From: Bacilli bacterium
GTDB lineage: Bacteria > Bacillota_I > Bacilli_A > RF39 > UBA660
Assembly (NCBI GenBank): GCA_017541885.1
Contig: JAFXYF010000011.1
Location: 85,007-149,006, forward strand
DNA: 64,000 nucleotides
Reading direction: 5' to 3'
Each line of letters begins with the position of its first letter. Positions within the stretch are counted from its first letter, which is position 1. The notes under the pieces were generated by a model. That model made no database searches. It had not been told where the DNA came from and worked only from the letters and a program-made list of their open reading frames with translations. The translations under genes were made by a program, and so were the position numbers. Positions 27,512 to 33,231 of this stretch are shown here, piece by piece.

Positions 27512-27689
27512 AGTAAATTTTTATGAAAAAAGTAAAAAAAATATATCAATGTTTTTGAATTTATGGTATAGTTAAATAAAGATGAGATAACCCGAAGGTA
27601 AAGTATTGTCAAAGAGTAGAAATTTGTCGAATTTAATCCCCTACAAAATAGGAAGTTATGATAAAATGAATATGATAGAGGTGACACAA

Positions 27690-28742
27690 ATGAACGATTT
27701 ATTAGATTTTTTAACATCACAAGAAATAATAATTGTTTATATAATAGCAGCTTTGGCTTGCCTTATCTGTTTTATTGTATATTTAGTAGAGAAGAATAAC
27801 GAGAAATTAAGACTTAGACACAATACTAGAGAATTAAATAAATTAGTAGAGGAGATTAAAGCATTGACTCCAGAAGAAGCAAAAGAAGAAGTATATGATA
27901 CTCCTGTACTTGAAAATATTATTGAACAACCAGAAAAACCTATGGTAATTGGACCAATTAATGTAGAAGAAACTGTAGATTTATCTGAAGTTGTAGAAGA
28001 AGTAAAAAAATATGAAGACGAAGTAATTGAAGAAGAACCTGAAGATGAATTAGAATATACTTCAATTGAACCAGATCAAGAAACTGCAAGATTAGAATTA
28101 GAAAGACTTAAAGAACAACTAGAAAGAGAAGAATTAAGAGACCAAGAAGAAGTAGTTGAACCTACACCAGTTGAAGTACAACCAGTACAAACAACTGAAC
28201 CTCAAATAGAAGCAATTGAAACAGTAAATGAATATGAAGAAGAACAAGAAAAGACAGCAATCATCTCATTAGAAGAATTATTAGCAAAAAGCAAAGAAAT
28301 GTATGAAGCTAATGAGTTAACTCAATATAAAGATGAAGGTAATGAACCTATATCAATTCAAGATTTAGAGATTCAAGTACAAAGACAAGCTGCTACATAT
28401 GACGAACCATTTATTATAGCTAATGTTGTACCAGAAGAAGAATTACAAGAAGGAATTAATGAAGCATTTGAGCAAATCGTTCAAGAAGAAAAAGAAGTAT
28501 TACATGTTGATGATATGAATACAATTTCTGAAGAAACTGTTAATCCAGTAGTAAAAGAAGAAGTAAGAAAGTTTCAAGCAAGCCCAATTATTTCTCCAAT
28601 CTTTGGAATAGAAAGAGATACTTCAAAGGATAATGCATTATCGTTAGAGAATACTGCTAATTATGATAAATTAGATGCAGCTATGCGTAAGAATAATGAA
28701 TTCTATATGTCGATCTCTGAATTACAAGGAAAAACAGAATAA
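27690..28742 (+). CDS. Acidic membrane-anchored hypothetical protein
   Basis: N-terminal TM, Glu-rich body, C-terminal F.ASPIISPIFG. ATG at 27690 follows GAGGTG. Confidence 0.7.
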   Translation: MNDLLDFLTSQEIIIVYIIAALACLICFIVYLVEKNNEKLRLRHNTRELNKLVEEIKALTPEEAKEEVYDTPVLENIIEQPEKPMVIGPINVEETVDLSEVVEEVKKYEDEVIEEEPEDELEYTSIEPDQETARLELERLKEQLEREELRDQEEVVEPTPVEVQPVQTTEPQIEAIETVNEYEEEQEKTAIISLEELLAKSKEMYEANELTQYKDEGNEPISIQDLEIQVQRQAATYDEPFIIANVVPEEELQEGINEAFEQIVQEEKEVLHVDDMNTISEETVNPVVKEEVRKFQASPIISPIFGIERDTSKDNALSLENTANYDKLDAAMRKNNEFYMSISELQGKTE

Positions 28743-30095: not shown

Positions 30096-30122
30096 AAAAA
30101 ATAGGACTAAGTCCTATTTTTT
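30094..30122. terminator. Bidirectional intrinsic terminator
   Basis: A-tract-ataggac-taa-gtcctat-T-tract between mtaB and the 490-aa gene. Confidence 0.85.
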
Positions 30123-30124
30123 AT

Positions 30125-31597
30125 TTATTCTTCAGTTTCTTCTTCTTTATCTTTTCTCATAGCTTTTGCTGCTATCATACCAGCAATACCTGCTGCAGCA
30201 CCAATTGCTGCTGGAGTAATATAATCTCCAAATGAATCTTTCATTCCAACTCCAGTTTCAGGAATAGATGAATATTGAGGAGTTGAATCAGTATAACCTG
30301 TAGAAGAACCACTATCAACACTATTATCTAAATTAGAAAAAATAGGTGATGCATGTTGTGATAAAGCATTATCACTAACTCTTTCTTGAATAGCAGATGT
30401 TGTATTAACAATATCTGTATTAGTAATTGGATTATTAGAAATAGGTTGAGTATTATTAATAGTATCATTATTAATAATTATAGTTCCTAAATCATCACCC
30501 TTTTTATTATCAAATATTGGAACAGTAGGTGTAGTAGGTGGATTAGTTATAGAATCTGGAGGTCCAGCATATAAAACCTGAATTTTAGGTACAGAAGCTG
30601 GTGGTGCAATAGTAACAGGTGTTGTTTGATTCTCAAAATAACTAGGTCCAGCATATACTACTTGATTAGTAGGAACTTTAATATCAGCTAAATGACCATT
30701 AGGATTTACTGGATTAGTATCATTAAAATAGCTAGGTCCAGCATATACTACTTGATTAGTAGGAACTTTAATATCAGCTAAATGATCACTAGGATTTACT
30801 GGATTAGTATCCTCAAAGTAGCTAGGTCCTGCATATACAACTTGATTTGGTTTAGGTATAGTATTTGCCCTAGGAAGATTATCCTTATTGTTAGAAGGAG
30901 CTTCTGTAATAGGAGCTGTGCTTGCAGGCGCACTAGTTTGCGGATTTGTTGGGAATGTTCTTGGAGCAGTTGTAGGCGCACTAGTTTGCGGATTTGTTGG
31001 GAATGTTCTTGGAGCAGTTGTAGGCGCAGGTGCAGATGGAGCAGTAGTTGTAGGTAATGGAGCAGTTGTAGGTGATGGAGTAGTTACGCTTGATGTTTGA
31101 GGAGTAGTATCTTGAGTTGTATTAATATTAAGACCCCCACCGTTAGAAGTCATTCTCTTTAAATCATCTTCACTAACTTCAATTAACTTACCATCAGGGC
31201 CCTTAATCATCATTTTACTTTCACCTTGTTCAGCAGTAACACCAGATACATTTTCATTTCCTGTTTGAACATTACTAGAAGTATCTCCGCCAGCACTAAC
31301 ACTGTTTTCATTCATGAAAGATTCAATTGCACGAACTTGATTATTAATTGTATCAGAAATATTTTTAGTATCTTCTCTACACTGAGTCATAAGTCTCTCA
31401 GGCATTCTCATATCAATAGCAGAATCATCAACTTCAACAAATTCAATACCATTAGCATTAGATATCTTCATAACTGCATCATATAAAGTATTATCTACCT
31501 CAGATAAATCATTTTTAATTTCATTAAGTAAAGCTTGAGCTTCAGAAACCTTAGCCTCATCATATTTTATTGTAGCATTAGCATTATTCCCCTTCAT
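30125..31597 (-). CDS. Repeat-containing surface protein: WXG100-like N-terminus, Pro/Thr linker, four (V/L)YAGP motifs, IPETG sorting signal; candidate radical SAM substrate
   Basis: Helical N-terminus without a signal peptide; NQVVYAGPSYF x3 plus QVLYAGPP; IPETG followed by a hydrophobic segment and a KAMRKDK tail. Confidence 0.75.
   Translation of the reverse strand: MKGNNANATIKYDEAKVSEAQALLNEIKNDLSEVDNTLYDAVMKISNANGIEFVEVDDSAIDMRMPERLMTQCREDTKNISDTINNQVRAIESFMNENSVSAGGDTSSNVQTGNENVSGVTAEQGESKMMIKGPDGKLIEVSEDDLKRMTSNGGGLNINTTQDTTPQTSSVTTPSPTTAPLPTTTAPSAPAPTTAPRTFPTNPQTSAPTTAPRTFPTNPQTSAPASTAPITEAPSNNKDNLPRANTIPKPNQVVYAGPSYFEDTNPVNPSDHLADIKVPTNQVVYAGPSYFNDTNPVNPNGHLADIKVPTNQVVYAGPSYFENQTTPVTIAPPASVPKIQVLYAGPPDSITNPPTTPTVPIFDNKKGDDLGTIIINNDTINNTQPISNNPITNTDIVNTTSAIQERVSDNALSQHASPIFSNLDNSVDSGSSTGYTDSTPQYSSIPETGVGMKDSFGDYITPAAIGAAAGIAGMIAAKAMRKDKEEETEE
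30633..30850 (-). repeat. 90-nt (30-aa) tandem repeat carrying NQVVYAGPSYF
   Basis: YAGP codons at 30824-30835, 30734-30745 and 30644-30655 (exact 90-nt period); a degenerate fourth copy at 30560-30571. Confidence 0.92.
30926..31028 (-). repeat. 48-nt (16-aa) near-perfect tandem repeat APTTAPRTFPTNPQTS
   Basis: Unit aggcgcactagtttgcggatttgttgggaatgttcttggagcagttgt starts at 30926 and 30974; partial third start at 31022. Confidence 0.92.
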
Positions 31598-32003
31598 TTA
31601 AAACACCTCCCATATCAGTAGTTTGTTGTGGAGTTGTATCAAGATGAAGAAGAGCTTCTTGCTCATCTAATCTTTTAGCTTCTTCATTAAATATTACTTG
31701 TTTACGATTAACAACTCTTTGAGTTGTAGTATTAACTGTTTCAGATAAATCATTTATATATAATGAAAAATCTCTAGTTCTCTTTTCATATTCTTCAATT
31801 ATTGCTTCCATATTTGAATCAGAAACAGATAAACTATCACGATTAATTAAATCTTTTAATACTTCAATTTTCTTAGATAAATTTTCTAATTTTTCTGATG
31901 CATCTTTTAACATACGACATCCATTATTAATAGTTGGCATATCAATTACTTTTAAAGCATCTTCAGCAATAACATATTTTCCTTGATATTTTTCTATAGC
32001 CAT
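31584..32003 (-). CDS. Small helical protein, WXG100/Esx-like (tentative)
   Basis: 139 aa with a helix-turn-helix coiled-coil pattern; GGAGG RBS; overlaps the start of the 490-aa gene by 14 nt. Confidence 0.55.
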   Translation of the reverse strand: MAIEKYQGKYVIAEDALKVIDMPTINNGCRMLKDASEKLENLSKKIEVLKDLINRDSLSVSDSNMEAIIEEYEKRTRDFSLYINDLSETVNTTTQRVVNRKQVIFNEEAKRLDEQEALLHLDTTPQQTTDMGGVLNEGE

Positions 32004-32026
32004 AATTTAGCCTCCTAATATATATA

Positions 32027-32104
32027 ATTGTATCATATTAAAAGAGTGATTTGTATAGATTTTTCGACAAAAAGAGAAGTAATTCAAATAAGTTATGATA
32101 TACT
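32027..32104. promoter_or_regulatory. Divergent extended -10 promoters
   Basis: TGaTACAAT on the minus strand (32027-32035) and TGaTATACT on the plus strand (32096-32104). Confidence 0.55.
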
Positions 32105-32121
32105 AAACTAGAGGTGTTAAG

Positions 32122-33210
32122 ATGACAACCAATTTAGAAAAAGAGAATGATTTAAAGAATTTATCTATGCAAAGAAAATATCTTTATGATCATCCTGTAT
32201 TAAGATTTTTATTCCTAGAAGTTACATCAAGATGCAATGCAAGGTGTGAACACTGTGGAAGTAGATGTGATGGTAATGAACAAGGAAAAGAAATAGAAGC
32301 AAAATATTTAAAGAAAACACTCAAAGAGATTTCAGAGTGTTATGATCCTAAAAAAGTATTCTTAAATGTTACTGGTGGAGAACCATTAATGAGAAAAGAT
32401 TTATTCGATATAATGGAATATGCAACAAATCTAGGTTTTAAATGGAGTATGACATCTAATGGAATGATAATAAATGAAACAATGATAAAAAAACTTGAAA
32501 AAGCAAAGATGACAACAGTTTCTATTAGTATTGACGGATTAAAAGAAACTCACGAGAAATTTAGAAAAGTACCTAATTGTTATGAAAATATTTTAAAAGG
32601 TATAGATATGATGCAAGCATCTCCTGTATTTAAAATAGTTCAAGTCACAACAGTAGCAAATAAAAATAATATTAATGAGTTAGAAGATTTATATCAATTA
32701 CTTTTAAAACATAATGTTAAATATTGGAGAGTAGTTAATTGTGATCCAATAGGTCGAGCTAATGATAATAAAGATATTTTCTTAGATATGGATGATTATA
32801 AATATTTATTTCATTTTATAGAAGAAAAACAAAAAGAAGGCAAAATGAAAGAAATTACTTATGGATGTAGTCATTACTTAGGAATAAATGGAGAAAATAA
32901 ATATAGAAACTTCTATTTTATTTGTACTACAGGCTTAACAGTAGGAAGTATTCTAAGTAATGGAGATATCTTTGTATGTCCAAATGTTCCAAGAAGAAAA
33001 GAACTAATTCAAGGAAATATTAAAAAAGATAGTTTTGTAGATGTTTGGGAAACTAGATATAAAGAATTTAGAAATGAGAATAGAACATCAAATTCTAAAT
33101 GTAAAAAATGTAAGCATTGGGAATATTGTTTAGGTGATTCGTTCCATACATGGAATTTTGATGAAAATAAACCAAATATTTGTCTAAAATCAATTTTTGA
33201 TGAAATTTAA
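32122..33210 (+). CDS. Radical SAM/SPASM maturase, splicease-like (TIGR04133/PlpX-type)
   Basis: EVTSRCNARCEHCGSRC, TGGEPL, SISIDG...H..FR, PIGRA, YGC..YLG and a SPASM region C..G...SI..NG.I..CP, QGNI..D.F.DVWE, CKKC.....C.G...H...C. Confidence 0.85.
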   Translation: MTTNLEKENDLKNLSMQRKYLYDHPVLRFLFLEVTSRCNARCEHCGSRCDGNEQGKEIEAKYLKKTLKEISECYDPKKVFLNVTGGEPLMRKDLFDIMEYATNLGFKWSMTSNGMIINETMIKKLEKAKMTTVSISIDGLKETHEKFRKVPNCYENILKGIDMMQASPVFKIVQVTTVANKNNINELEDLYQLLLKHNVKYWRVVNCDPIGRANDNKDIFLDMDDYKYLFHFIEEKQKEGKMKEITYGCSHYLGINGENKYRNFYFICTTGLTVGSILSNGDIFVCPNVPRRKELIQGNIKKDSFVDVWETRYKEFRNENRTSNSKCKKCKHWEYCLGDSFHTWNFDENKPNICLKSIFDEI

Positions 33211-33231
33211 GCAAGAGAAATCTTGCTTTTT
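33209..33231 (+). terminator. Intrinsic terminator after the radical SAM gene
   Basis: aagcaaga-gaaa-tcttgctt followed by a U-tract. Confidence 0.85.

Follow-up and report, generated by a model that had tools for sequence, protein, structure and literature searches.

The window examined here is a stretch of 64,000 nucleotides (nt) from the genome of a Bacilli bacterium of the RF39 lineage, and the system in question is a cassette of three genes lying in it between mtaB and recD2. One gene encodes a radical S-adenosylmethionine (SAM)/SPASM enzyme of 362 amino acids (aa); the others, read in the opposite direction, encode a 139 aa helical 'helper' protein and a 490 aa protein in which the motif (V/L)YAGP occurs four times. 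Sequence comparison strongly supports a link, far beyond chance, between the clade of this enzyme and an invariant Tyr with a small residue and Pro after it in neighbouring proteins. The 490 aa protein is very probably the substrate of the enzyme, with the four (V/L)YAGP sites proposed as the sites of modification. Splicing of the backbone by loss of tyramine would be the first-choice chemistry, since the motif matches the X-Tyr-Gly site of the known spliceases; the whole mechanism, this chemistry included, is given a probability of about one half.

The source assembly is 1.45 Mb in size and low in GC, with a completeness rating of 98.4 %. A near-identical cassette recurs in animal gut metagenomes from several studies. 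Contigs from two RNA libraries (95–99 % alike, depth 2–5) cover parts of all three genes, but they may reflect carry-over of DNA, because one of them covers the entire divergent intergenic region (31983–32137).

Association of the enzyme with a tyrosine motif

A first-pass annotation, made from the letters of the window, had named co-occurrence of close homologues with motif-repeat proteins as a check on its reading, and such co-occurrence is found. Within a comparison set of 47 genomes of the genus the enzyme is present in 14 genomes at 15 loci, and at 11 of the 15 a neighbouring protein bears a motif of the hydrophobic-Tyr-Gly/Ala-x-Pro type. The form of the motif varies from genome to genome: nine copies of (Q)(V/L)LYG(V/A/P) in G014, with the variants LYGV, LYGA and LYGP; LLYGPP in G011; VLYGPGP in G020; many copies of PLYGVP and PKYGVV in G012; four of VYGPAPAP in G010; three of IYAPPTP in G004; VYGVP and VYGPP in G048; and KYGV and AYGV in G017, G043 and G046, the last with eight (K/A)YGV sites.

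Metagenomes supplied 80 enzyme loci at 53–84 % identity, 27 of them flanked by at least 2.5 kb on each side. Counted with a strict pattern, these 27 loci have a neighbour with at least two motifs in 11 cases, with one motif in 14 and with none in 2; many of the one-motif neighbours hold further, looser copies, e.g. VYGIP and VYGVM. The controls were 200 random windows of 8.1 kb from the source genome and 27 distant radical SAM loci, and at least two motifs were found in none of either (0/200 and 0/27). Single motifs occur in 14 of the 200 random windows and at 12 of the 27 distant loci, this background being high in GC-rich DNA, and it is for this reason that counts of at least two motifs are relied upon. 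At seven metagenome loci (L157, L162, L170, L176, L178, L180 and L181) the enzyme gene is followed directly by genes for proteins of 400–970 aa with KYD(I/V)xPEDNxP(Q/R)xVYG(V/I/P)P repeats, a third architecture among the putative substrates; two of the contigs have 'human gut metagenome' in their titles.

The association extends across phyla. When 40 TIGR04133-like loci were set against 40 distant radical SAM loci, a small same-strand neighbour with YG[VTP][PVRMI] was found at 20 of the former and 5 of the latter, and at the TIGR04133-like loci nearly all of these neighbours have a signal or lipobox. Two Bacteroidales enzymes belong to TIGR04133 proper (570.5 and 505.9 bits). Three neighbours were tested, from the loci of these enzymes and from one other, and all three are TIGR04134 lipoproteins (92.1, 81.6 and 105.7 bits) which carry MYGVP, MYGTP or EYGVP a few residues past the lipobox Cys. 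A myxobacterial lipoprotein (Anaeromyxobacteraceae) has Q(P/V)LYG(P/V) five times.

The same motif was reached from the side of the candidate substrate. A 96-column profile of its N-terminal domain (N-domain), searched against 1.84 billion proteins, yielded 52 representatives, and of the 41 with a length of 150 aa or more, 24 carry at least two motifs. The threshold of two was kept here as well, given that the looser pattern used for this family also matched four stretches in or beside the N-domain itself (AYATG, AYAPG, LYSGV and AYGAA). The family consensus is Q-x-L-Y-(G/A)-P-P, and where the frame Q-x-[LVIM]-?-[GA]-[PA]-P is held and the residue at the query position left free, Tyr stands there in all 65 cases. 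Tyr is followed by Gly 36 times, by Ala 29 times and by Ser and Thr once each. Judged by these alignments, the Tyr-Ala of the window protein is an ordinary natural variant of the Tyr-Gly site, and to that extent the first idea of YAGP as a non-canonical Tyr-Ala target stands. Strong N-domain matches (E below 1e-30) occur in seven genomes of the genus, all seven of which have the enzyme. Weaker relatives of the N-domain in nine enzyme-less genomes of the genus show no motif repeats; a lone QVLYG is left in the relative from G054.

The radical SAM/SPASM enzyme and its relatives

The 362 aa protein matches both Radical_SAM (79.7 bits) and SPASM (37.6 bits), as its initial assignment to the radical SAM-SPASM enzymes would have it, and there is no RRE domain among its Pfam or NCBIfam matches. 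Residues C38, C42 and C45 form the CX3CX2C motif, and seven further cysteines (C249, C268, C286, C327, C330, C336 and C354) lie in the SPASM half. The sequence motifs first quoted for the enzyme correspond to invariant columns of the genus alignment, which comprise E33, T35, C38, N39, C42, H44, C45 and C49 in the N-terminal part, followed by Y247 and C249, by G298, N299, D303, F305, W309 and E310, and by C336, G338 and H342. In residues 327–342 (window 33100–33150) Ser or Ala stands in place of the fourth Cys of the canonical SPASM pattern CX2CX5CX3C in nine of nine genus sequences. Asp339 and His342 are invariant in the genus enzymes, and C-x-G-x-x-x-H is found in the TIGR04133-like sequences inspected, too. 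One auxiliary cluster of the enzyme may have an unusual or open ligand.

The best NCBIfam family is TIGR04133 (rSAM_w_lipo), matched with 291.2 bits over model positions 13–339 of 350, short of the curated cut-off (425 bits). Lower scores, all far below their cut-offs, are those of AhbD (153.9), TIGR04053 (137.2), NirJ2 (134.2) and NirJ (126.5); among SPASM maturases MftC scores 118.6, WgkB 111.7, PapB 94.3, DynA 88.6 and PqqE 77 bits. We take TIGR04103 to be the PlpX family, in part through IPR026482 in PMC11002830. The enzyme scores 105.3 bits with this model (104.2 in the genome search) against a cut-off of 725.

Relationships were estimated in a quick IQ-TREE maximum-likelihood run with 55 rows: 14 from the genus, 27 TIGR04133-like and 14 distant. 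The last two groups are 41 of the 80 contig loci (27/40 and 14/40, respectively), hand-picked for a full-length match. The genus enzymes are monophyletic (support 98) and sister to a sequence from a Clostridia metagenome-assembled genome, with a value of 99 in the Shimodaira–Hasegawa-like approximate likelihood ratio test (SH-aLRT). Together with the TIGR04133-like sequences of Bacteroidota and Myxococcota they make up one clade (SH-aLRT 100, branch length 0.63), separated from 13 distant, heme-type-like sequences; the fourteenth, L068, has a long branch and falls within the TIGR04133 side. The window enzyme and its relatives are best described as a clade of Bacillota that is sister to the radical SAM-lipoprotein system TIGR04133/TIGR04134. 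Of the splicease-like character first ascribed to the enzyme, the placement in this clade can be retained and the closeness to the PlpX-type model cannot; the grouping with cofactor-biosynthesis enzymes that the same annotation wished to see checked is not found, the enzyme sitting apart from the heme-type relatives on the tree.

In an AlphaFold2 model of the enzyme, with a predicted local distance difference test (pLDDT) value of 80.1 and a predicted template modelling (pTM) score of 0.82, the fold neighbours are peptide- or protein-modifying SPASM enzymes: anSME, with a template modelling (TM) score of 0.70, and also SuiB, CteB and SkfB. A profile search of PDB sequences with the enzyme finds CteB at 3e-29. 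The enzymes of G017, G043 and G046 (L025:6920-8281, L131:5306-6679 and L133:4750-6117) carry an additional N-terminal extension of about 90 aa; that of G017 shows no relation to the helper or the N-domain in hhalign (probabilities of 0.6 % and 0.3 %).

The 490 aa candidate substrate

From its N terminus the 490 aa protein consists of the helical N-domain, a Pro/Thr-rich linker, the four (V/L)YAGP sites, a stretch rich in Asn and Thr, IPETG, a single hydrophobic segment and an acidic tail. Neither it nor the 139 aa protein has a significant Pfam or NCBIfam match. The four copies of (V/L)YAGP that first drew attention to the protein are present as described (Table 1). YAGP occurs six times in the source genome, in 3 of 1410 open reading frames (ORFs) of at least 100 aa, and four of the six are in this protein; none of 20000 shuffled versions of the protein has two or more. 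Three of the four copies are contained in a 90 nt tandem repeat (30633–30847; 2.4 copies, 92 % matches), so that the window holds only about two independent units. Its closest relative, P0122, has the three sites VVYAGP, LLYGGP and ALYSAP.

Residues 160–250, in the linker, are 73 % Pro, Thr, Ser and Ala. The copy number of the 16 aa repeat in the linker differs between samples: a 474 aa form exists (P0121), and one DNA contig skips 30925–30974.

Helper protein and N-domain

The helper gene is kept upstream of and beside the substrate gene in five relatives (G014, G011, G012, G010 and G023). In P0151, a protein of 481 aa, the two parts are naturally fused, the helper as residues 2–115 (hhalign 98.1 %) and the N-domain as residues 201–291, which suggests that helper and N-domain work together. 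The first-pass annotation had coupled the 139 aa protein to the 490 aa gene, as the overlap of the two ORFs bears out, and had underrated the helper, which the fusion ties to the N-domain. P0151 has the usual C-terminal anchor and no Tyr motif. No relation between helper and N-domain was found with hhalign (probability 0.3 %).

The AlphaFold2 model of the N-domain is a helix-loop-helix hairpin (helices 14–46 and 66–102; mean pLDDT 80.1, pTM 0.62). The hairpin is a generic fold, and in a fold search no structure matched the model at E 0.001 or below (best E 0.77). Complexes of enzyme, N-domain and helper were predicted with scores of 0.77, 0.80 and 0.77 for the helper, which are read as neither for nor against binding; with the enzyme replaced the score was 0.80 and with the helper replaced 0.00 twice, and no inference as to binding is drawn from these controls either.

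The N-domain family reaches beyond the enzyme. In some members the N-domain is joined to no more than a low-complexity stalk with the same anchor. In the source genome itself an 813 aa paralogue (G000:C4:90632-93071; L129:2132-4573) has an N-domain-like start, the same C-terminal anchor and no Tyr motif; its anchor reads IPDT...DYIxPA, a Gly/Ala-rich hydrophobic segment and an acidic tail. Given that this motif-less paralogue shares the layout, anchor and N-domain would belong to a wider envelope architecture that is independent of the enzyme. N-domain and helper look like a general delivery or handling module, to judge from the distribution of these sequences, with the Tyr repeats as the part tied to the enzyme. 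A 514 aa relative of the N-domain (L124:2174-3718, in G009:C10; also P0169) ends in a NAGPA phosphodiester glycosidase domain (48.3 bits), an architecture that resembles polymorphic secreted effectors.

Possible anchoring and route of export

The 490 aa protein has no N-terminal signal peptide and no lipobox. Its C-terminal part contains IPETG and KAMRK as well as a hydrophobic segment, and six sortase genes are present in the genome. The last residue of the IPxTG-like motif varies in relatives (IPDTG, IPNTA, IPDTM, IPKTS and IPDTS), and their tails are long and acidic; wall anchoring is unproven given so loose a motif and such tails. The protein had at first been called wall-anchored: IPETG and the hydrophobic segment speak for this, the missing signal peptide and the Gly that relatives do not keep speak against it. 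Attachment to the wall and export by the type VII route are both plausible hypotheses.

The source genome has two full-length EssC genes of the type VIIb secretion system (T7SSb) above cut-off, G000:C16:70027-73902 (974.5 bits) and C10:19889-23359 (922.3 bits). Weak WXG100-like ORFs are present near the EssC genes on both contigs. A WXG100-like domain is joined to the Tyr-Gly repeats in the candidate substrates of G017, G043 and G046 (18.1, 22.6 and 17.8 bits), with small helical proteins encoded alongside. The tie to helical proteins that look like type VII substrates suggests that chemical modification of exported proteins lacking a signal peptide can precede their secretion. Protein Atlas rows near WXG100/LXG clusters score 0.85–0.89, below 0.9, and serve as leads only. 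A literature search combining radical SAM/SPASM with type VII secretion/WXG100 returned nothing relevant by title or abstract.

Proposed mechanism and alternative chemistries

In the proposed mechanism the enzyme would act in the cytoplasm on the tyrosines of the four (V/L)YAGP sites of the neighbouring protein. Reductive cleavage of SAM would initiate radical chemistry by which a tyramine equivalent is excised from the backbone. The 139 aa helper would bind the helical N-terminal hairpin of the substrate, and this module would probably present the substrate to the enzyme, keep it export-competent, or both, in a role likened to that of the leader helix or Y protein which activates known spliceases. 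The C-terminal hydrophobic segment would then hold the modified protein in the membrane, and the Pro/Thr-rich, ketoamide-bearing stalk would probably lie outside the cell, reached by a signal-peptide-independent route such as the type VII secretion that the genome encodes.

Spliceases act at X-Tyr-Gly with Met or Leu as the natural X (PMC11414181, PMC11626197, PMC9811515, PMC10533398), and the mass lost is 135.06 Da (PMC11414181; also PMC11626197, PMC9811515, PMC10533398, PMC10849128, PMC11002830). The splice tags printed in PMC10533398, PIRPLYGLPI and AVAAGYGVVFP, are alike in local context to the genus sites QPLYGVP and QPKYGVV. Spliceases depend for activation on an alpha-helix that comes from a Y protein or from the leader; there are also binary systems, in which the Y protein is missing (PMC11414181, PMC11626197). 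The survey of Scott et al. (2022), as quoted in PMC10533398, counts 27 characterized and 939 predicted splicease systems; the enzyme type of the window may already be among the 939 or in the supplements of these papers. No mention of TIGR04133 was found in the literature search, supplements being outside its scope, and the search gave no paper joining radical SAM, lipoprotein and tyramine in Bacteroid*.

Several observations weigh against the mechanism as proposed. The site in the window is Y-A-G-P and not Y-G, and in the literature passages searched no report was found of a splicease that accepts Ala after Tyr. The TIGR04103 score of the enzyme is lower than its AhbD, NirJ2 and MftC scores, and there is no characterized splicease among the rows of the tree. 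The enzyme has no motif-bearing neighbour at 4 of the 15 genus loci (a 95 aa stub in G023; no partner in G041, G057 and G020-C3) and at 2 of the 27 metagenome loci, and the background of single motifs in the controls was noted above. There is no PqqD-like RRE partner, and the helper belongs to no Pfam or NCBIfam family. Some N-domain proteins carry no Tyr motif, and the N-domain is therefore not specific to the enzyme. As to export, the cassette lies on contig C1 between mtaB and recD2, away from the type VII genes; the two proteins of the window have no WXG100/LXG match, and the WXG100 matches of the relatives are below the PF06013 cut-off of 27.3 bits.

The same enzyme might act on the same tyrosines by another radical chemistry, be it a Tyr C-C or C-O crosslink, beta-hydroxylation, epimerization or a cleavage of the Tyr side chain to another product; this is a possibility to be taken seriously, if a doubtful one. 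Many SPASM maturases with differing chemistries (MftC, WgkB, PapB, DynA and PqqE) lie at an equal distance from the enzyme, and the products of its closest structurally solved counterparts are thioethers, Lys-Trp links or formylglycine. The motifs themselves can be read either way. Gln is common at position -3 in Bacillota, and Ala, occasionally Ser or Thr, after Tyr departs from strict X-Tyr-Gly; however, only Tyr, the small residue and Pro are common to all phyla, and the Bacteroidota motifs (DMYGVP, TKYGVP) have no Gln at -3, which leaves no second conserved reactive side chain as partner for a crosslink. The site moreover fits the sole known radical SAM reaction that is defined by X-Tyr-Gly.

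It is improbable that the system is functional in its Y-G relatives and decaying in the source genome, with YAGP as drifted, unprocessed copies or with an idle enzyme. Decay would agree with the loss of the substrate at the four genus loci named above, with the difference between Y-A-G-P and the family consensus Y-(G/A)-P-P, and with the recent tandem origin of three of the four sites. Yet all three ORFs are intact and the enzyme retains every invariant column of the genus alignment; P0122 keeps its three sites in the same frame, Y-A sites are common in the family (29/67), and the near-identical cassette is present in gut metagenomes of several studies.

That the enzyme is an AhbD/NirJ-like enzyme of cofactor biosynthesis and a chance neighbour of a low-complexity surface protein is very unlikely and largely refuted: AhbD, NirJ2 and NirJ are among the next matches after TIGR04133, but each scores well short of its cut-off (500 to 515), the tree splits the clade from the distant group with a support of 100, no HemB/ALAD was found in the source genome, rated 98.4 % complete, whereas a control search found HemB in 11 of 14 known genomes, and the association of enzyme and motif is documented.

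If splicing does take place, a wider and more tentative proposal is that enzymes of this type install arrays of ketoamides, as alpha-keto-beta-amino acid units at Tyr-Ala and Tyr-Gly sites, in large proteins of gut Bacillota that have no signal peptide, are similar to type VII substrates and are anchored in the membrane or wall. The stalk might then be a covalent trap for, or shield against, serine and cysteine proteases of the host or of other microbes at the surface; the TIGR04133/TIGR04134 lipoproteins of Bacteroidota would be the Gram-negative counterpart, and backbone splicing would here serve the cell envelope and not small secreted peptides.

Backbone splicing has so far been shown on short peptides and engineered tags. 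Spliced tyrosines in the 490 aa protein would extend this rare, backbone-rewiring modification to large, natural envelope proteins of common gut bacteria, would provide protein engineering with natural multi-site splice tags, Tyr-Ala sites included, and would give a testable function to the long-uncharacterized TIGR04133/TIGR04134 pair, which is widespread in Bacteroidota. Should the chemistry differ, the sharply defined pair of enzyme and motif (invariant Tyr, small residue, Pro) would be a means of finding a new radical SAM reaction.

Relation to known systems

The closest relative is the TIGR04133/TIGR04134 pair, listed by NCBIfam as 'hypothetical equivalog' and found mainly in Bacteroidota. 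Its enzymes share the clade of support 100 with the window enzyme, both have CX2CX5C-x-G-x-x-x-H with the fourth SPASM Cys missing, and both adjoin Tyr-motif proteins, which at the TIGR04133 loci are envelope proteins with Tyr-Gly-(Val/Thr/Pro)-Pro. Unlike the TIGR04134 partners, the window partner is not a lipoprotein and has no TIGR04134 match; it differs further in its size of 490 aa, its helical N-domain, the separate helper, the presence of several sites, Ala after Tyr and the C-terminal anchor.

PlpX/PlpY, PcpX/PcpY, RhaX, RcsX and RasX are likewise radical SAM/SPASM systems in which the enzyme adjoins a multi-site Tyr-motif substrate. The orthologous loci of the genus and of metagenomes carry X-Tyr-Gly as the splicease substrates do, whereas the window carries X-Tyr-Ala-Gly four times. 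In contrast to the spliceotide pathways, the cassette is without a PqqD-like Y protein, a Nif11/NHLP leader, a protease or an exporter, and the observation made at the outset that the insert holds no RRE/PqqD partner, protease or exporter thus remains valid for all cassette genes. Spliceotide substrates are short peptides, while the candidate here is a large anchored protein with a Tyr-Ala-Gly site. Spliceases have a helical activator; the helper and the N-domain of the cassette are both predicted to be helical, but give no PqqD/RRE match.

With anSME, which gives the highest TM score, the enzyme shares a similar length, the SPASM domain and the lack of an RRE, and anSME acts on a short motif of a full-size protein that is exported afterwards. 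Identity is only about 21 %, and anSME oxidizes Cys or Ser in the C/S-x-P-x-R of sulfatases; neither this motif nor a sulfatase is present here.

The WXG100/LXG substrates of T7SSb resemble the window protein in the predicted helical hairpin of about 100 aa, the lack of a signal peptide and the small helical partner encoded upstream. A further trait of this kind is that the region after the N-domain varies among family members, one glycosidase domain included. A C-terminal membrane anchor is unusual in T7SSb substrates, and TelA-LXG/Lap, EsxA and EsxGH appear only among weak rows of the fold search.

Layout and genomic setting of the cassette

Coordinates of the cassette and of its parts are collected in Table 1. 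The flanking genes are identified as MtaB (TIGR01579, 456.6 bits, cut-off 357) and RecD2 (TIGR01448, 726.8 bits, cut-off 500). In all four informative genomes of the genus that lack the enzyme mtaB immediately adjoins recD2 (a fifth contig stops after mtaB), and the three genes are therefore a cassette at the mtaB-recD2 site, the three-gene insert of the first description. The stop of the 139 aa ORF overlaps the start of the 490 aa ORF by 14 nt, an arrangement from which the two genes are taken to be translationally coupled.

Table 1. Features of the cassette, with positions in the window
Feature	Positions	Strand or setting	Basis
490 aa candidate substrate protein	30125..31597	-	ORF; family via profile search
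N-terminal domain, ~100 aa, with conserved IDMRMPEKLMxQCRE	31298..31597	-	Alignments, AlphaFold2 model
48 nt (16 aa) tandem repeat in the Pro/Thr-rich linker	30922..31028	-	Tandem Repeats Finder (TRF): 2.2 copies, 98 % matches
Tyr-motif region	30554..30853	-	NQVVYAGPSYF three times (Tyr255, 285, 315; 30 aa period) and IQVLYAGPP (Tyr343)
C-terminal anchor	30128..30265	-	IPETG (aa 445–449), hydrophobic segment (aa 460–477), tail KAMRKDKEEETEE
139 aa helical helper protein	31584..32003	-	ORF
Divergent intergenic region, 118 bp	32004..32121	Ribosome-binding sites for both operons	Sequence
Radical SAM/SPASM enzyme, 362 aa	32122..33210	+	ORF, Pfam/NCBIfam matches, alignment, tree
Bidirectional terminator-like hairpin	30096..30122	Between the stops of mtaB and the 490 aa gene	12-pair stem, T-runs on both sides
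Weak terminator-like hairpin after the enzyme gene	33211..33231	+	7 bp stem, 4 nt loop, T5

The insert had been described as closed by terminators on both sides. The left one is a clear hairpin of 12 pairs; the right one was not called by the terminator scan and folds no better than shuffled sequence (z -0.91). Similarly, the 118 bp length given for a divergent promoter region holds for the gap; promoter-like sites were not above chance in the scan, with 17 found against 21.4 expected.

On the far side of mtaB, positions 27606–28742 encode an acidic protein of 378 aa with an N-terminal transmembrane helix and no Pfam match. Nearly all of the relatives examined encode it close to mtaB and upstream of that gene, mostly directly so; in two relatives one small gene intervenes, and in G001 it was not seen.

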